Origin: an uncultured Gemmatimonadaceae bacterium | GTDB taxonomy: Bacteria > Gemmatimonadota > Gemmatimonadetes > Gemmatimonadales > GWC2-71-9 | Assembly (NCBI GenBank): GCA_964519805.1 | Contig: CAZFKN010000002.1 | Location: forward strand, 3,814 to 67,813 | Direction: 5' to 3' | DNA length: 64,000 nucleotides | In this document: in pieces, positions 53,587-59,631 of the stretch | Position numbering within the stretch: the stretch's first letter is position 1 | Layout of the letters: each line of letters opens with the position of its first letter | Made by a program: the position numbers and the translations under genes | Notes under the pieces: generated by a model | What the model was told of the DNA's origin: nothing | What the model saw: only the letters and a program-made list of their open reading frames with translations | Databases searched by the model: none

Positions 53587-54192
53587 TCAGCGCCGCAGCA
53601 TGGCGAGCTCGCGCTGGAGATGGTCCAGGCGTTCCATCACCGTGCGGTGGCGCTGCTCGGCGTCGTCGGGATGGCGGCCCCGGAAGTAGATGGTCCCGTT
53701 GGGGTAGAGCATAGCGCTGTCGATTTCGCCCAGGGTATCGAATCCCCGCTCGTGCGCCTTGGCCACCAACTCCCCGGCATTGACGTGGAGCCGACGCATC
53801 TCGCTTTCCTCGAGGTGGCCCCCCGTGATGAGGCTGATGTCCCGGTCGGTGTCGGAGAGCAGATTCTGCGAAGGGCCCCGATAGTAGCGGCGGACCAGCA
53901 GCGCGTTGCAGACCAGGAGCGAGATCGCGCCCACGAGCCCGCCCGCGAGCGAGGTATCGTTTCCGATGATGGCGTTCTGCACCGTGTTGGATAGCGTGAG
54001 CAGCACGACGAAGTCGAACGGGTTGAGCTGCGCCAACATGCGCTTTCCGAACCTGCGCAGGAAAAAGACGAGGAACAGGTATACCGCCGCCGGCCGGAGC
54101 AGCTTCTCCACCCAGTGGAGCCAATCATTGGTCATTTCCGGCGTTCCCAGCGTGATCAGGTCGCGCCACACACTGAGCAGGTGACTCTCCAT
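53587..54192 (-). CDS. DUF421 (YetF-like) membrane protein
   Basis: RRFGKRMLAQLNPFDFVVLLTLSNTVQNAIIG pattern. ATG 54192 is preceded by GGAGGGGG. The longest ORF (to 54867) is an unsupported upstream extension. Confidence 0.75.
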   Translation of the reverse strand: MESHLLSVWRDLITLGTPEMTNDWLHWVEKLLRPAAVYLFLVFFLRRFGKRMLAQLNPFDFVVLLTLSNTVQNAIIGNDTSLAGGLVGAISLLVCNALLVRRYYRGPSQNLLSDTDRDISLITGGHLEESEMRRLHVNAGELVAKAHERGFDTLGEIDSAMLYPNGTIYFRGRHPDDAEQRHRTVMERLDHLQRELAMLRR

Positions 54193-54225
54193 CGGGCAGC
54201 CCCCTCCGCGATTAGCTTGCGTTCG

Positions 54226-56115
54226 ATGTCGCTTCCACTCGCTCACTCGATTGTACGCCCCAACCCGGGGGGCCGAAAGCCGGACGAGCCCCAACCGGGC
54301 TGGCGGGAGCGGCTCAAGGCCCTCAGGCATCTCCCGACCCTCCTCCGTCTGGTCTGGACTACCGAGCCGAAGTACGTCGTCGGGATCCTGCTGCTCCGAG
54401 TGGTGCGGGCGGTCGTTCCGCTGGCCGTGCTCTGGGTGGGGAAGCTCATCGTGGACGAGGTCGTGGGCGCGATCGGCCACCCGTCCGCCGAGGTGCCGTG
54501 GGCCCGGCTGGGCACCCTCCTCGCGATCGAGTTCGCCATTGCGGTCGGTGGCGAGGGGCTCTCCCGGTTGTCGGCCCTGTTCGAGAGCCTGCTGGGCGAT
54601 CTCTTCGCCAACCGCACCAGCGTGGATCTGATGCGCCACGCGGCGTCCCTCGACCTCGAGCAATTCGAGGATCCCGACCTCTACGACAAGCTGGAGCGCG
54701 CCCGCCGGCAGACAGTGAACCGGATCGGGCTGTTCACCCTGCTGCTTTCCACGCTGCAGGACCTCGTCACGCTGGTCACGCTGTCGGCAGCGCTCGTCGC
54801 GTACGTGCCCTGGCTGCTGGTGCTCCTGGTCGTCGCCGTCCTGCCTTCGCTCCTGGGCGAGACGCACTTCGCATCCTTGGGCTACTCGTTGCTCTTCTCC
54901 TGGACGCCGGAGCGTCGCCTGCTCGATTACCTCCGGTATATCGGGGCGAGCGATATCTCGGCCAAAGAGGTGAAGCTGTTCGGTCTGTCCGACTTTCTGG
55001 CGGGACGCTACGAGCGGCTGAGCCGGGAGTTCTACGAGGCCAACAAGGCGCTCGCGCTCCGGCGCGGCCTCGTCTCCAGCCTGCTCGCGGCGCTAGGGAC
55101 CCTGGGCTATTACGGCGCGTATGTCGTGATCATTTACTTGACCGTGATCCAGCATCGCGGTCCGGCGGGCGTGTTCACCATCGGCGTGCTCACCTTTCTC
55201 ACGGGCTCCTTCCGCCAGAGCCGGGATCTGATCCAGCGCGTCCTGCTTTCGCTCACCCAGGTGTTCGAGCAGAGCCTCTACCTCGACGACCTCTTCAGCT
55301 TCCTGGCGCTGGAGCCGCATATCCGTGCGTCCGCGGGCGGGCGCCCGGTGCCGGTGCCCATCCGGCGCGGCTTCGTCTTCGAGGACGTGGGGTTCCGCTA
55401 TCCTGGCTCGGAGCGTTGGGCCGTCCGTCACCTGGACTTCGCTCTGGAGCCGAGTGAGCGCATCGCGCTCGTCGGCGAGAACGGAGCGGGCAAGACCACG
55501 CTGGCCAAGCTGCTGGTCCGGCTCTACGACCCGAGCGAGGGACGGATTCTGCTGGACGGCGTGGACCTCCGGGAGTACGACGTCGAGAGCTTGCGTCGCA
55601 ACGTGGGCGTGATCTTCCAGGACTTCGTGCGCTACGACTTCGTGCTCCGGGAGAATATCGCCGTGGGCAACATCGAGCGGCGCGAGGAGGAGCCACGGAT
55701 TCTCGGCGCGGCGGAGCGGAGCCTGGCCGACTCGGTGGCCCGTCGCCTGACGGGCAGCTACGGGCAAATGCTCGGGCGGCGGTTCGAGGGCGGCGTGGAG
55801 CTGTCCGGCGGTGAGTGGCAGAAGGTCGCGCTCGCCCGGGCCTACATGCGTGACGCCCAACTCCTGATCCTCGACGAGCCGACCGCCGCCCTCGATGCCC
55901 GAGCCGAGTATGAGGTGTTCCTCCGATTCTCGGAGCTTACAGCCGGCAAGATGGCCGTGCTCATCTCACACCGTTTTTCGACCGTGCGGATGGCCGATCG
56001 AATCCTGGTGCTGCGAGGTGGCGAGATGGAGGAGCAGGGGACCCACGCAGACCTGGTGGCACGTGGCGGCCTTTACGCGGAGCTCTTCCAGCTGCAGGCG
56101 GCCGGCTACCGATAG
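54226..56115 (+). CDS. ABC exporter, fused permease/ATPase (MsbA-like type I)
   Basis: N-terminal six-TM domain. Walker A GENGAGKTTLAKLL, signature LSGGEWQKVALARA, Walker B LLILDEPTAALD. I prefer ATG 54226. Confidence 0.9.
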   Translation: MSLPLAHSIVRPNPGGRKPDEPQPGWRERLKALRHLPTLLRLVWTTEPKYVVGILLLRVVRAVVPLAVLWVGKLIVDEVVGAIGHPSAEVPWARLGTLLAIEFAIAVGGEGLSRLSALFESLLGDLFANRTSVDLMRHAASLDLEQFEDPDLYDKLERARRQTVNRIGLFTLLLSTLQDLVTLVTLSAALVAYVPWLLVLLVVAVLPSLLGETHFASLGYSLLFSWTPERRLLDYLRYIGASDISAKEVKLFGLSDFLAGRYERLSREFYEANKALALRRGLVSSLLAALGTLGYYGAYVVIIYLTVIQHRGPAGVFTIGVLTFLTGSFRQSRDLIQRVLLSLTQVFEQSLYLDDLFSFLALEPHIRASAGGRPVPVPIRRGFVFEDVGFRYPGSERWAVRHLDFALEPSERIALVGENGAGKTTLAKLLVRLYDPSEGRILLDGVDLREYDVESLRRNVGVIFQDFVRYDFVLRENIAVGNIERREEEPRILGAAERSLADSVARRLTGSYGQMLGRRFEGGVELSGGEWQKVALARAYMRDAQLLILDEPTAALDARAEYEVFLRFSELTAGKMAVLISHRFSTVRMADRILVLRGGEMEEQGTHADLVARGGLYAELFQLQAAGYR

Positions 56116-56116
56116 G

Positions 56117-56151
56117 CACTTCTCGCCGCTCACTTCTCATGTCTCACCCAT
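56117..56151. repeat. heptad-periodic CT-rich element related to the 3670-3774 palindrome
   Basis: CACTTCT CGCCGCT CACTTCT CATGTCT CACCCAT begins 2 nt after the ABC exporter stop. It shares the 11-mer CTCACTTCTCA (56129-56139) with 3756-3766. Confidence 0.4.
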
Positions 56152-56203
56152 TTGACAACCCCTTTTTCCGTCGCCAAGTTGGGCTTCTCTACAGCTTTGG
56201 GAG

Positions 56204-58264
56204 GTGGCGGCCATGAAGGCATATGGCTCGAACGCCATCCGGAACGTGGCCTTCGTAGGACATGGCGGGAGCGGCAAGACGTCCCTCGTGGATGCACTGG
56301 CCTGGGTCTCCGGCGCCAGCCGGCGACACGGCTCGACAAAGGACGGCACGGCCCTCACCGACTACTCTCCCGACGAAATCGAACGCAAGCACTCGATCGG
56401 CCTCGCCCTCGGCTACGCCGAGTGGCTGGACACCAAGCTCAACCTGATCGACACCCCCGGCTACCTCGACTACTTCGGCGAGGTGGTGACCGGACTCCAC
56501 GCCGCCGATGCGGCCGTCGTGGTGTTGAGTGGCTCGGCGGGGGTCGAGGTGGGCACCGAAAAGGCCTACGAGACGTGCGACCACCTCCATCTGCCGCGGA
56601 TCCTGTTCGTCTCGGCGATGGATAAGGAGCACGCGGATTTCGAGCGCGTGTTCCAGGACGTCAAGGCGCATCTGACGCCCAAAGTCGTCCCGGTGGAGAT
56701 CCCGATCGGCGACGGTCACGATTTCCACGGCATCATCAACCTGTTCTCCGGCCATTGCCACTTTTACAAGCGCGGGACGAAAACGGGAGAGTACGACGTC
56801 GTCCCCATCCCACCGGAGTACCAGGACCGTTTCCGCGAATACACCGAGCATCTCACCGAGACCGTCGCCGCGACCGACGACACGCTCATCGAGCGGTATC
56901 TCGGCGGCGAGGAGATCGCGCGGGACGAAGTGATCCGCGCCATGAAACGGGGGATGGCCGAGGGCGCGATCGTGCCGCTGTTCTGCGGCAGCTCCGACCT
57001 CACTTACGGCATGCGGGCATTGCTCAAGAAGATGGTGGAGCTCTTCCCGTCGCCCGCGGAGGTGACCGCGCCGGCCGATGCGCCGCTGGTCGGGCGCGTC
57101 TTCAAGACCGTCTCCGAGCCCCACGTCGGCGACGTGACCTTCTTCCGCCTCTATCGGGGCGAAGTCAAAAACGGCGACGAGGTCTGGAACGCGGAGCACG
57201 AGACGTCCGAAAAGCTGCACCACCTCTCGATCCAGCAGGGCAAGGAGCGGGTGGAAGTCGAGCGTCTGGCAGCCGGCGACATCGGGTCCGTAGCCAAACT
57301 CAAGGACACGCACACCGGCGACACGTTCTGTCTCCGCGAACGTCCCGTCCGGCTCCCCCCGATCCCGTTCCCCGAGTCCGTGGCCACGTCGGCGGTCATC
57401 GTGAAACAGCGGGGTGAAGAGGACAAGCTCGCGGCCGGGCTCCACAAGCTCCACGAGGAAGACCCCACCTTCCACTTCGAGTACAGCTCCGAGCTGGGCC
57501 AGACGCTCATCCACGGCATGGGCGAGCGTCACTTCGAGACCATCCTCGGGCGGCTCCTCCGCAAGTTCGGGGTCCATGCGGAGCTGATCCGGCCGCGGGT
57601 CGCCTACCGCGAGACGATCAAGGGGAAGGCGGAGGGCCAGGGCAAACACAAGAAGCAGACGGGCGGCCGCGGCCAGTATGGCGACTGCTGGGTCCGGCTC
57701 GCCCCGCTCCCTCGAGGTGGTGGCTATGAATTCGTCGACGCCATCGTCGGCGGCGTGATCCCGAACAAGTACATCCCTGCGGTGGATCGGGGGGTTCAGG
57801 AAGCGGCGGCGCGCGGCATCGTCGCGGGTTACCCGTGCGTGGACTTCAAGGCCGAGTGCTACGACGGCTCATACCACGACGTCGACTCCAACGAAATGTC
57901 GTTCAAGATGGCCGGCATTCTTGCCTTCCGAAACGTGGCTCCGAAGTGCAGGCCGATCCTGCTCGAGCCGCTCCTGGACGTCGAGGTCTGGGCGCCGGAG
58001 GACGTGCTGGGCGACGTGATGGGTGACCTGTCGGCGCGGCGGGGCCAGATCCTGGGGACGGAGCAGGATGGACGGCTGACGAAGGTCCGCGCCATCGCGC
58101 CCGAAGCGGAGATGTACAAGTACTCCACGACGCTCCACTCGATCACCCATGGCCGCGGGACCCATCGGCAACGCTTTCGTGGCTACGCCGAGGCCCCACC
58201 CGACGTCGCGGCCAAGGTCGCCGCGGAAAACGAGAAGGACCGGGAGCACGCGGCGGCGAGCTGA
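56204..58264 (+). CDS. elongation factor G-like GTPase paralogue with degenerate G motifs
   Basis: Five-domain EF-G architecture, 686 aa. The P-loop is retained (GHGGSGKTS). Switch II reads DTPGYLDY instead of DTPGHVDF, and the NKMD position reads SAMD. GGGAGGTGG Shine-Dalgarno upstream. Confidence 0.85.
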   Translation: MAAMKAYGSNAIRNVAFVGHGGSGKTSLVDALAWVSGASRRHGSTKDGTALTDYSPDEIERKHSIGLALGYAEWLDTKLNLIDTPGYLDYFGEVVTGLHAADAAVVVLSGSAGVEVGTEKAYETCDHLHLPRILFVSAMDKEHADFERVFQDVKAHLTPKVVPVEIPIGDGHDFHGIINLFSGHCHFYKRGTKTGEYDVVPIPPEYQDRFREYTEHLTETVAATDDTLIERYLGGEEIARDEVIRAMKRGMAEGAIVPLFCGSSDLTYGMRALLKKMVELFPSPAEVTAPADAPLVGRVFKTVSEPHVGDVTFFRLYRGEVKNGDEVWNAEHETSEKLHHLSIQQGKERVEVERLAAGDIGSVAKLKDTHTGDTFCLRERPVRLPPIPFPESVATSAVIVKQRGEEDKLAAGLHKLHEEDPTFHFEYSSELGQTLIHGMGERHFETILGRLLRKFGVHAELIRPRVAYRETIKGKAEGQGKHKKQTGGRGQYGDCWVRLAPLPRGGGYEFVDAIVGGVIPNKYIPAVDRGVQEAAARGIVAGYPCVDFKAECYDGSYHDVDSNEMSFKMAGILAFRNVAPKCRPILLEPLLDVEVWAPEDVLGDVMGDLSARRGQILGTEQDGRLTKVRAIAPEAEMYKYSTTLHSITHGRGTHRQRFRGYAEAPPDVAAKVAAENEKDREHAAAS

Positions 58265-58279
58265 CGCCGTCGCGCGCCG

Positions 58280-58702
58280 GTGGGCGTGACGTACCGGCTC
58301 CTCGCCGACGGTCTCGTTCTCGTCCACTTCGGGTTCGTGCTGTTCGTGGTGCTGGGCGGCCTGCTTGTGCTTCGCTGGCCGCCGCTCGGGTGGGTGCATC
58401 TGCCTGCGGCGGCGTGGGGCGTCTGGATCGAGCTGAGCGGTGGGATCTGTCCGCTCACACCGCTCGAGCAGGCGCTGCGGCGGCGCGCGGGTGGCCCGGT
58501 GTACACCGGAGACTTCGTCGGTCAGTACATCCTGCCGGTTCTTTACCCTCACGGTCTGACCCGAGAGATCCAACTCGTACTTGGCGCGCTGGTGGTGGGC
58601 GTGAATGTGATCGTTTACTGGTGGGTGTGGCGGCGTCAGCCGAGCTCCTCCCACTCACGCTCGAAGCGCACGATGAGCGGATCGGCCCCCAGCGATCGAT
58701 AG
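58280..58702 (+). CDS. DUF2784-like membrane protein
   Basis: LADGLVLVHFGFVLFVVLGGLL ... WGVWIELSGGICPLTPLEQALRRRAG pattern. GTG start 16 nt after the EF-G-like stop. Confidence 0.65.
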   Translation: MGVTYRLLADGLVLVHFGFVLFVVLGGLLVLRWPPLGWVHLPAAAWGVWIELSGGICPLTPLEQALRRRAGGPVYTGDFVGQYILPVLYPHGLTREIQLVLGALVVGVNVIVYWWVWRRQPSSSHSRSKRTMSGSAPSDR

Positions 58703-59631
58703 CTCGCCAGGACCTGGTTGCGGTGCTCCTCGGCCGCAGGGTTACCGCTCGCCCGAAGTGCGAGGGCCAGCACCGCGGCGCTGTCGGCCTGAAGGACCGC
58801 GGCACCGTGCTGTGCCGCGATCGTGCCGGCGGCCTCGGCCTCGCGAATCGCTCCGTCGAAATCGCGGCGCTTGAGCGCGGCACGGGCGCCGATGCGCCGC
58901 GCTTCCGCGATGCCGAGGGCGTCGTCCGCCGATTGGGCCAGGCGGATCGCATGCGCCACCTCCCGCTCCGCCAAGCCGAGCTCCCCGGCATCCACGTGGA
59001 CTTCGGCCCGCCCGGTCACGGTGAGCGCCAGCAGCGCGCTCTCGCCCACCAGCTCGGCGTGCCGCACCGCCTCGGCCGACGCGTCCTCGGCCTCGGCCAG
59101 CTCGGCCATGCCGCGGAACGCGAGCCCGAGGTTGTGGTACGTTTCCGCCGCGCCGCGCCGGTCGCCCAGCCGCTGATAGGATAGCAGGGCGCCGCGGAAG
59201 AGACTGAGCGCGTCGTTGGCCCGCCCGCGAATATGACTCAGCGACGCGAGGTTGTTGCTGGCGCGGGCCACGAGCAGGGAGTCCCCCAGCTCCCGAGCGA
59301 GCGACAGCGCCCCACGGAACGCCTCCTCGGCGTCGCCCAGACGGCCCTGCTCGAAGCCGATCACGCCAAGCAGGTTGAGCGCCCGCATCCGACCGTCGCG
59401 GTCACCCCGGCTGCGGAAGCCGGCGAGCGCTGCCTCAGCCAGCGAGCGGGCCGTGTCGAGCTCGCCGACGCGGGTCGCAGCCGTAGCAGCCAGGAGCAGC
59501 AGCTCGGGCCGCCGACGGACGGACGGCCCATCGAGCTCCCGGAACGTCCGGAGCGCGTCCGCAAAGCGGCCCGCGGCGACCAGGTCGCGGAGGACCTGGG
59601 CTGCGTCACCGGCGGGAGGCGTGGGCGTCAT
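58636..59631 (-). CDS. tetratricopeptide-repeat protein
   Basis: 331 aa of repeated TPR-like helical hairpins (A/L/R/G-rich, for example RALNLLGVIGFEQGRLGDAEEAFRGALSLARELGD). No signal peptide. Confidence 0.7.
   Translation of the reverse strand: MTPTPPAGDAAQVLRDLVAAGRFADALRTFRELDGPSVRRRPELLLLAATAATRVGELDTARSLAEAALAGFRSRGDRDGRMRALNLLGVIGFEQGRLGDAEEAFRGALSLARELGDSLLVARASNNLASLSHIRGRANDALSLFRGALLSYQRLGDRRGAAETYHNLGLAFRGMAELAEAEDASAEAVRHAELVGESALLALTVTGRAEVHVDAGELGLAEREVAHAIRLAQSADDALGIAEARRIGARAALKRRDFDGAIREAEAAGTIAAQHGAAVLQADSAAVLALALRASGNPAAEEHRNQVLASYRSLGADPLIVRFEREWEELG

Follow-up and report, generated by a model that had tools for sequence, protein, structure and literature searches.

An EF-G2 (EFG II) orthologue of Gemmatimonadota with tyrosine at the place of the catalytic histidine and a further-eroded guanine-binding motif

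Gene organization at the locus

The window analysed here is a stretch of 64,000 nucleotides from an uncultured Gemmatimonadaceae bacterium. On its forward strand, an open frame of 686 codons (56204–58264) translates into an EF-G paralogue. The initial annotation placed the start of the gene at GTG 56204, but the start is probably ATG 56213 (CDS 56213–58264, 683 amino acids), because this codon is preceded by a Shine–Dalgarno sequence, GGGAGGTGG (56199–56207, forward strand; GGAGG core at 56200–56204, 8 nt 5′ of the ATG), and because public homologues of 683 residues begin with MKAYGS, which matches this start. The GTG falls within the Shine–Dalgarno sequence itself, and its use would add three residues. 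The motif GGAGGTG is conserved in the alignment of orthologous leaders. The protein has the full length and domain order of EF-G, as originally described: its five domains (Pfam GTP_EFTU, EF-G_D2, EFG_III, EFG_IV and EFG_C) all score above cut-off, and it shares 40% identity with a solved EF-G across the full length.

The gene is flanked on the same strand by an ABC-type ATPase/exporter gene upstream (54115–56115; ABC_tran match), which lies outside the conserved unit, and by a gene for a DUF2784 membrane protein downstream (58280–58702; Pfam PF10861), 15 nt past the stop codon. Both neighbours had been named correctly in the initial annotation, as had the location of the gene away from the ribosomal genes, outside the str operon. 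An ABC gene precedes the EF-G2 orthologue in only seven close loci and a DUF2784 gene follows it in six; in other orders, rhomboid and Ddl-like genes lie upstream and YebC–RuvA–RuvB downstream. Among the orthologous loci compared, no neighbour is conserved phylum-wide in a way that indicates a pathway. A functional tie to the ABC exporter and the DUF2784 protein was rejected, since these neighbours are kept only among close relatives. The link to the exporter that had been hinted at is likewise weak, as this context is limited to close relatives and a conserved promoter lies directly in front of the gene. Co-transcription of the EF-G2 and DUF2784 genes is possible, within the close-relative family only.

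Transcription signals and leader

A putative sigma-70-type promoter lies at 56152–56180 on the forward strand (−35 hexamer TTGACA at 56152–56157, 17-nt spacer, −10 hexamer CAAGTT at 56175–56180); transcription would then begin near 56187. The element ATTTGACA is invariant in all 13 aligned orthologous leaders, the rest of the intergenic DNA being unconserved, and TTGACA is found at −58 to −62 in each of the 16 sub-clade members. A generic scan for promoters and terminators returned nothing near the EF-G2 gene, the putative TTGACA promoter included. The promoter seems to be of the plain TTGACA housekeeping type and by itself gives no hint of stress induction.

In the predicted fold of the window leader, the Shine–Dalgarno sequence pairs with a CT-rich element (56125–56140), with a z-score of only −1.94. 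RNAalifold applied to the 13 leaders gave no conserved stem at this pairing. We regard a hairpin that sequesters the Shine–Dalgarno sequence as a weak candidate, given this z-score, the lack of a conserved stem and the overlap of CCACCTTGG with the −10 hexamer. In the relatives, the ‘anti-SD’ element CCACCTTGG falls on the predicted −10 hexamer and is therefore probably not transcribed.

One soil metatranscriptome library contains short contigs nearly identical to the gene, such contigs not being proof of transcription, and a root RNA library contains contigs of about 90% identity; stretches of the gene that no contig covers are uninformative. One contig of the root library extends past the stop codon and across the junction with DUF2784, which is not proof of a single transcript.

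Assignment to the EFG II subfamily

The phylogenetic position of the protein was examined in a tree of 148 sequences (FastTree, LG+gamma; root assumed on the branch between canonical EF-G and EFG II). The canonical EF-G clade (14 sequences) separates from the EFG II clade with a support of 1.0. The window protein sits in the latter, a clade of 135 sequences in which the 73 Gemmatimonadota paralogues form a single group (support 1.0). The protein can thus be assigned from its sequence, with near certainty, to the EFG II subfamily, in agreement with the EFG II-type paralogue proposed in the initial annotation.

EFG II (Margus, Remm and Tenson, 2011, PMC3150367; ‘EF-GII’ in Atkinson, 2015, PMC4342817) is defined by a P-loop with Gly for Ala first, at position 16, and Leu last, at position 25 (type I positions), by a trGTPase G2 consensus RGITI loosened to xxxSx, and by two conserved lysines in loop I of domain IV; it is always found alongside another EF-G in the genome, usually EFG I (PMC3150367). 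The window protein resembles this subfamily in its five domains and in the presence of a canonical EF-G alongside, in its P-loop GHGGSGKTSL (Gly first, Leu last), in its switch I, KHSI, which fits xxxSx, in the KK pair of domain IV loop I and in domains I–III evolving faster than domain IV. It differs in two respects: aligned with canonical EF-G, the Gemmatimonadota clade is nearly free of indels, and the G4 motif is SAMD ([S/N]xMD in the phylum), whereas NKxD is described for EFG II, with G4 and G5 stated to be conserved (Margus 2011, PMC3150367). Judged from the sequences compared here, that statement is too strict and provides no true exclusion criterion, since G4 varies in many other EFG II lineages (NQMD, NMMD, SRMD and NWMD). 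Gemmatimonadota are absent from the named EFG II sub-subgroups (‘gemmatimon’ has no match in the text of PMC3150367).

The window protein stays below the cut-offs of the canonical EF-G equivalog TIGR00484 (624 bits, cut-off 659.4), of the Bacteroides EF-G2 model NF058620 (548 bits, cut-off 1000) and of NF009377, ‘EF-G-like protein EF-G2’ (582 bits, cut-off 890). The sole model that it passes is the generic subfamily NF009381 (817 versus a cut-off of 583), which we rejected as a family marker since at least one protein with canonical EF-G motifs, P0259, passes it too (782.5 bits). For annotation purposes, the gene is to be named EF-G2/EFG II and not fusA, and is otherwise routine.

Distribution and selective constraint

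A canonical fusA is present elsewhere in the genome, between rpsL–rpsG and tuf. Its N-terminus (AHIDAG) lies at the end of contig C132, after rpsL and rpsG, and its C-terminus at the end of contig C152, before tuf and rpsJ; the gene is split over these two contig ends, its middle being absent from the assembly. An orthologue of EF-G2 occurs in 94 of 121 Gemmatimonadota genomes, each with a fusA about 40% identical to it, and was not found in the remaining 27, as would fit an accessory role. Across 67 orthologues, dN/dS is 0.07–0.15 (about 0.1) in all domains, the G core included, and domain IV is the best conserved domain. This distribution and this dN/dS together point to a selected accessory factor and not to a decaying copy. 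The motif changes described below do not result from chance, error or decay, since they are fixed phylum-wide in the 67 orthologues under this same constraint.

G-domain and domain IV motifs

The motifs were compared by residue-by-residue alignment with Thermus thermophilus EF-G (all coordinates on the forward strand), which shows that they are really altered and not conserved. In G1, the P-loop GHGGSGKT followed by S-L (56258–56281) replaces AHIDAGKT and is of the EFG II type; as the initial annotation had noted, the P-loop GHGGSGKTS itself is kept. The pattern GHGxxGKTxL is unchanged throughout a 12-sequence alignment, with Gly19, His20, Gly21, Gly24, Lys25, Thr26 and Leu28 invariant. In G2, switch I reads KHSI (56387–56398) instead of RGITI, also as first reported, and places Ser64, invariant in the same 12 sequences, where the Mg-coordinating threonine would be.

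In G3, switch II is DTPGY (56450–56464) instead of DTPGH, with Tyr87 at the place of the catalytic histidine. The substitution had been read as a sign of a degenerate G domain: the alignment bears out the change itself, but not the special degeneracy, as a residue other than histidine is the norm in EFG II. The residue after DxPG is histidine in none of the 135 EFG II members of the tree; of 150 cluster representatives, 70 have Tyr here and 32 have Phe, and among the 67 orthologues the residue is Tyr in 61, Phe in four and Ser in two, and never His. We use non-His at this position as a hallmark of EFG II on an empirical basis, namely the tree sample, PDB entry 1WDT (T. thermophilus EF-G2) and Mycobacterium smegmatis (Msm) EF-G2. 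The missing histidine is therefore no peculiarity of the window protein.

In G4, SAMD (56612–56623) replaces NKMD. The loss of the NKxD guanine-specificity motif that had been claimed is accurate for its Asn (now Ser) and its Lys (now Ala), but the guanine-reading aspartate, Asp140, is retained. Among the 67 orthologues, the first position of G4 is Ser in 53, Asn in 11, Gly in two and Thr in one, and the second is Met in 38, Leu in 17, Gln in eight and Ala in four, Lys being absent; the aspartate is present in all 67. Loss of both Asn and Lys is seen in only about 12 of the 150 EFG II cluster representatives. G5, GSALKNKG in canonical EF-G, is GSSDLTYG in the window protein and is variable among orthologues. 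The residues that contact phosphate and Mg or belong to the switches are invariant (GxxxxGKT, Ser64, Asp83-x-x-Gly86), as is the guanine-reading Asp140.

In domain IV, loop I (KKQTGGRGQYG, 57650–57682) carries the two lysines typical of EFG II, Lys483 and Lys484, which are invariant (HKKQTGGRGQ), and loop II (GSYHDVDS, 57866–57889) is like that of canonical EF-G. The protein resembles canonical EF-G (fusA; TIGR00484) in its identity of about 40% over the full length, in the absence of large indels and in the loop sequences GGRGQYG and SYHDVDS. It differs from it in the altered G1, G2, G4 and G5 motifs, in the replaced catalytic histidine next to G3 and in the location of its gene outside the rpsL–rpsG–fusA–tuf operon, which exists separately in the genome. 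The window gene is an intact, well conserved member of the already described EF-G2 (EFG II) family, in which Tyr for His is normal; its only mildly unusual trait is the further-eroded guanine-binding motif.

Comparison with characterized EF-G2 proteins

The function of EFG II-type paralogues had been called unresolved in the initial annotation. This is partly outdated, since EF-G2 proteins from Bacteroides and Mycobacterium have been characterized. EF-G2 is widespread, yet only three organisms have provided characterized proteins, and the results conflict: an active GTPase in Thermus and inactive ones in Mycobacterium and Bacteroides.

EF-G2 of T. thermophilus (PDB entries 1WDT and 2DY1) shares with the window protein a GHxGSGKTxL P-loop, a switch II tyrosine (DAPGY), the replacement of the G4 asparagine (TKLD) and the five domains. 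Unlike the window protein, it keeps the G4 lysine and is 665 residues long, with deletions. It is also reported, in PMC3150367 (citing Connell, 2007), to hydrolyse GTP and to support poly(Phe) synthesis. A dead GTPase can thus not be read from the tyrosine alone, since this protein has the tyrosine and yet is reported to be active.

Msm EF-G2 (PDB entries 9K0Z and 9K10) carries TKLD and, in place of the His, Tyr98, and is without ribosome-dependent GTPase activity; in Msm EF-G1, the single change H88Y nearly abolishes GTPase activity (bioRxiv 10.64898/2026.05.25.727771). Mycobacterium EF-G2 holds post-translocation ribosomes under stress, a function shown for Msm only. The likeness to the window protein extends to the replaced G4 asparagine, the replaced Ile-Asp of the P-loop and switch I residues, and the presence of a canonical EF-G1, the Msm protein being non-essential. 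However, Msm EF-G2 has diverged much further (GPSGGGKT, a TKLD that keeps the lysine, displaced domain IV loops and a shorter C-terminal helix), whereas the window protein is full-length and has retained His20 of the P-loop and domain IV loops of the canonical type.

The third protein, Bacteroides thetaiotaomicron (Bt) EF-G2, encoded by fusA2 (PDB entries 7UVP and 8DMF; NF058620), also belongs to the EFG II clade and is the paralogue of an essential fusA. It catalyses slow translocation without GTP hydrolysis; it is reported to have no GTPase activity and to be induced by carbon starvation (PMC10994844; PMC6989115). Carbon limitation induces fusA2, which is required for gut colonization (PMC6989115; PMC10994844). 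Cluster representatives that match NF058620 best, albeit below its cut-off, differ from the window protein in loop I (RH[KR]KQxGGAGQF) and G4 (TKIN, NALE).

The family profile scores 784 bits against canonical T. thermophilus EF-G1, compared with 650–674 bits against the solved EF-G2 proteins (654 bits for that of T. thermophilus). In PDB searches with this profile and with the G domain of a Moorellaceae EFG II, canonical EF-G outranked 1WDT. The first 300 residues of the representative P0235 align to 1WDT from end to end and differ little from it (577 bits). Within EFG II, the Gemmatimonadota clade evolves slowly and has stayed close to EF-G, so comparisons with Msm and Bt EF-G2, which have diverged strongly, hold only loosely.

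Possible function

Taken as a whole, the explanation that we favour, with moderate confidence, is that the window protein is the Gemmatimonadota orthologue of EFG II/EF-G2, an accessory second EF-G coexisting with the str-operon fusA, and that it works as follows. It would still bind a guanine nucleotide and dock on the ribosome as EF-G does, its canonical domain IV tip loops entering the decoding centre. Ribosome-stimulated GTP hydrolysis is probably little, very slow or absent, and nucleotide affinity is probably lowered, because the catalytic histidine (Tyr87 here), the hydrophobic-gate isoleucines of the P-loop and switch I, and the G4 Asn and Lys are all missing. Here we rely on the motifs and, for hydrolysis, also on analogy with the characterized proteins; on balance, we lean narrowly towards an impaired GTPase. 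The protein might then act as an energy-sparing or ribosome-occupying factor when nutrients are poor or under stress, although this role in stress or starvation, suggested by analogy, is tentative. With domain IV intact and yet both the catalytic histidine and half of the four-residue G4 motif lost, the Gemmatimonadota clade offers a clean natural test case for which G-domain residues count for hydrolysis-independent translocation or ribosome occupancy, and also for GTP economy in soil and rock oligotrophs.

The most serious alternative is an active translocase like T. thermophilus EF-G2, which would hydrolyse GTP on the ribosome independently of the histidine and sustain normal elongation, as an isoenzyme suited to certain conditions. 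The same tyrosine in a protein for which GTPase and poly(Phe) synthesis activity is reported, the conserved domain IV loops, KKQ patch and full set of phosphate-binding residues, and the strong purifying selection on the entire G core are all compatible with such an enzyme. On the other hand, the clade also lacks the G4 lysine, mostly the asparagine, the P-loop Ile-Asp and the Arg-Gly-Ile-Thr context of switch I; H88Y alone leaves Msm EF-G1 almost without GTPase activity; and two of the three characterized EF-G2 proteins have no ribosome-dependent GTPase. We consider this rather unlikely.

We may also wonder whether the Gemmatimonadota protein is a guanine-nucleotide sensor of very low affinity, fast exchanging or differently tuned, which, at times of GTP shortage, would shift ribosomes or keep them in place without hydrolysis; such tuning might, for example, consist of insensitivity to inhibition by GDP or (p)ppGpp. 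This reading, which follows from the class-wide loss of both base-contacting G4 residues, Asn and Lys, a step beyond other EF-G2 proteins, while the phosphate, Mg and Asp contacts are kept under strong selection, is speculative and improbable; if true, the protein would be a natural translational GTPase variant with a mechanism of its own.

A pseudo-GTPase with lost or altered specificity (nucleotide-free, weakly binding, or binding ATP or XTP) that acts purely as a ribosome-binding protein appears quite improbable. The prevalence of SxMD (53 of 67 orthologues) with a second position free among Met, Leu, Gln and Ala, the variable G5 and the rarity of the double Asn/Lys loss within EFG II speak for it. 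Yet the P-loop Lys and Thr, Ser64, Asp83, Gly86 and Asp140 are invariant phylum-wide, which is hard to explain otherwise than by guanine binding and a working switch. Moreover, in Ras-like GTPases, changes of the G4 Asn or Lys chiefly speed up nucleotide release without abolishing binding.

A TetM/TetO-type role in ribosome protection or antibiotic resistance, exerted together with the upstream ABC exporter, is very unlikely. EF-G-like protection proteins do exist, the gene adjoins such an exporter and the NCBIfam model tet_protect gives a partial match, but this match (NF012153) reaches 284 bits for a cut-off of 775, the tree puts the protein in EFG II, and the ABC neighbour is confined to the few close loci mentioned above, the gene having its own conserved promoter. 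Finally, a decaying duplicate or pseudogene of fusA, which the seemingly degenerate G motifs might suggest beside canonical EF-G, is refuted by conservation: the full-length frame is open, orthologues are widespread in the phylum at low dN/dS, and the substituted positions are themselves conserved (an aromatic residue at 87, Ser137 and Asp140).

Sequence features of the EF-G paralogue

The gene of the EF-G paralogue (EF-G2) lies in an uninterrupted frame of 686 codons (window 56204-58264, + strand), the product of which exceeds the Pfam cut-off for each of the five EF-G domains and aligns end to end with Thermus thermophilus EF-G with only minor gaps (E = 1e-158). The start of the gene is likely to be the ATG at 56213, which corrects the frame start at 56204, because GGGAGGTGG (56199-56207) precedes it and the N-terminus of public 683-aa homologues reads MKAYGS. 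In the pairwise alignment, the coordinates of which were verified, G1 is changed from AHIDAGKT in T. thermophilus EF-G to GHGGSGKT, switch I from RGITI to KHSI, switch II from DTPGH to DTPGY and G4 from NKMD to SAMD, exactly as the initial annotation had read them; G5 is likewise altered. That annotation also described the NKxD motif as lost: the Asn and Lys are indeed gone, but the Asp is kept. Domain IV has two canonical tip loops, GGRGQYG and SYHDVDS.

The window protein belongs to the EFG II subfamily

EFG II has been defined by sequence signatures (Margus, Remm and Tenson, 2011; PMC3150367). The window protein shows a Gly instead of an Ala at the first P-loop position, a Leu at the last, a switch I loosened to xxxSx and two lysines in domain IV loop I (HKKQTGG), and a canonical EF-G co-occurs in its genome, all of which are signatures of the subfamily (PMC3150367). 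We gathered 67 Gemmatimonadota orthologues, 80 named loci spanning many phyla and 150 representatives of clusters at 50% identity. Of the 148 sequences in a maximum-likelihood tree, 14 have AHIDAGKT, RGITI, DTPGH and NKMD; these form one clade, separated from the rest with a support of 1.0, and the Gemmatimonadota paralogues form a single clade of 73 within the noncanonical group (support 1.0). This phylogenetic placement, which had been proposed as a check, puts the window protein on the EFG II side and shows that it is a member of the subfamily.

A canonical fusA, the presence of which was also to be verified, is found elsewhere in the same genome (197 contigs, 98.6% completeness), which the names of homologues assign to Gemmatimonadales. 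Its first 22 codons are at the end of contig C132 (7526-7591), straight after rpsL and rpsG, and its last 126 codons are at the end of contig C152 (5195-5572), followed by tuf, rpsJ and rplC. The middle is absent from the assembly; the fusA of the str operon is therefore present, broken by an assembly gap. The remaining two EF-G-like matches are TypA/BipA and LepA. A second EFG II C-terminal fragment (locus L002, 267 aa) lies at the end of contig C163 (3822-4622, - strand), with 72% identity to the window protein and 95% to L025, an orthologue from another genus. As L002 is closer to L025 than to the window protein, and as other genomes carry a single EF-G2 copy each, this 4.6 kb contig probably comes from a related population and was mis-binned, or alternatively holds a rare second copy.

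Lack of the catalytic histidine is typical of the subfamily

None of the 135 tree sequences on the EFG II side has a His after DxPG. The 150 representatives include 70 with Tyr at this position, 32 with Phe, 11 with Asp and 10 with His, and six of these last are plain canonical EF-G; among the 67 Gemmatimonadota orthologues the residue is Tyr in 61, Phe in four and Ser in two. The prototype, T. thermophilus EF-G2 (PDB entry 1WDT), reads GHAGSGKTTL, HRTTV, DAPGYGDF and TKLD, and Mycobacterium smegmatis EF-G2 has Tyr98 and TKLD (bioRxiv 10.64898/2026.05.25.727771). Absence of the catalytic histidine is thus the norm of the family. Four representatives (P0173, P0213, P0220 and P0252) combine EFG II-type features (GQ/GP/GT-type P-loops, a KKQ loop I and an xxxS/T switch I) with a His after DxPG. 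They could be early-branching or reverted EFG II lineages and would help to date the loss of the histidine.

G4 erosion in the Gemmatimonadota clade

In the 67 orthologues, the first G4 position is Ser (53), Asn (11), Gly (two) or Thr (one), the second is Met (38), Leu (17), Gln (eight) or Ala (four) and never Lys, and the fourth is always Asp. The forms that keep the Asn (NMMD) are those of the deepest families, and therefore loss of the Lys dates to the base of the phylum clade and that of the Asn is later. Other EFG II lineages have lost the Lys only, in independent events (NQMD in Clostridia, NMMD/NMLD in Thermoleophilia and NWMD in Acidobacteriota), and both residues are lost in only about 12 of the 150 representatives. 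G4 and G5 were stated to be conserved in EFG II (PMC3150367), a claim that is thus too strict. The Gemmatimonadota clade lies at the eroded end of a continuum, and the window protein represents a known family, modified in G4 to a modest, clade-specific degree.

Conservation and possible role

Of the 121 Gemmatimonadota genomes sampled, 94 carry an orthologue (46-88% identity) together with a fusA of about 40% identity. None was found in the other 27, which include whole genera, and this fits an accessory, dispensable factor. The gene is under selection: calculated against four close orthologues, dN/dS lies between 0.07 and 0.15 in all domains, the G core included, these values being approximate as dS is near saturation. 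In a pair of genomes that have both genes, identity is 68.5% for the paralogue and 85.8% for canonical EF-G. The best-conserved part of the paralogue is domain IV; Gly, Lys and Thr of the P-loop are among its invariant residues, as are Ser64, Asp83, Pro85, Gly86, Asp89 and Asp140.

The window protein keeps the phosphate, Mg, switch and guanine-Asp residues and the decoding-centre loops, and has lost the catalytic His, the P-loop Ile-Asp, the Arg-Gly-Ile-Thr context of switch I and the G4 Asn and Lys. It would bind a guanine nucleotide, probably more weakly, and sit on the ribosome at the EF-G site, with ribosome-stimulated hydrolysis that is probably absent or very slow. In line with this, Bacteroides thetaiotaomicron EF-G2 reportedly has no GTPase activity and is induced by carbon starvation (PMC10994844, PMC6989115). 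GTPase and poly(Phe) activity are, on the other hand, reported for T. thermophilus EF-G2 despite the same Tyr (PMC3150367). Because of this counter-example we lean only slightly towards an impaired GTPase in the window protein, and consider it unlikely, though still worth some weight, that it is an active alternative translocase as in T. thermophilus. The degenerate motifs of the initial annotation are confirmed, and its interpretation is borne out in part only. By analogy with characterised EF-G2 proteins, the window protein might spare energy or hold ribosomes under starvation or stress.

Genomic context and a putative promoter

As first described, the gene follows one for an ABC_tran protein and precedes one for DUF2784. 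The exporter is shared by only seven loci and DUF2784 by only six, all from close relatives. In other orders it has rhomboid or Ddl-like genes on one side and a YebC-RuvA-RuvB cluster on the other, and in the deepest families it adjoins ParA-like and aldose-epimerase genes. Longimicrobiales-like lineages (among loci L049-L084) show rhomboid and Ddl-like genes, then EF-G2, then YebC/TACO1-RuvA-RuvB (for example L064:9118-10056, L082:6807-7952 and L071:6862-9063). YebC/TACO1 has been described as a translation factor; the adjacency may still be incidental.

In the aligned leaders, the DNA of which is otherwise not conserved, ATTTGACA is invariant (13/13) and a CAnnnT hexamer follows after a spacer of 17 nt; TTGACA occurs at -58 to -62 in 16/16 members of the sub-clade. 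In the window (56152-56180), this element comprises TTGACA (56152-56157) and CAAGTT (56175-56180) and resembles a sigma-70-type promoter of Gemmatimonadales in which the first -10 position is C, so that EF-G2 most likely has its own promoter, independent of the exporter's transcript. Two RNA libraries, one from soil and one from roots, contain contigs of the gene, a weak sign of transcription. Directly after the exporter stop, a CT-rich element of period 7 (56117-56151) can pair with the EF-G2 SD region in the minimum-free-energy fold (z = -1.94; 8/200 shuffles as good); it may be outside the transcript, since it is upstream of the predicted -35 box.

No Pfam ABC_membrane match was found in the N-terminal 430 aa of the exporter (54115-56115, +) at E <= 0.001. 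A 426-aa ORF runs on the minus strand (53587-54867); its N-terminal half is an antisense shadow of the exporter gene, with matches to relatives confined to the stretch shared with the exporter. In public runs, window 55600-58800 is covered at 0.92-0.93 of sampled words in four rock-metagenome runs of one study, which are probably its origin, and is partly present in soil metagenomes of several studies.
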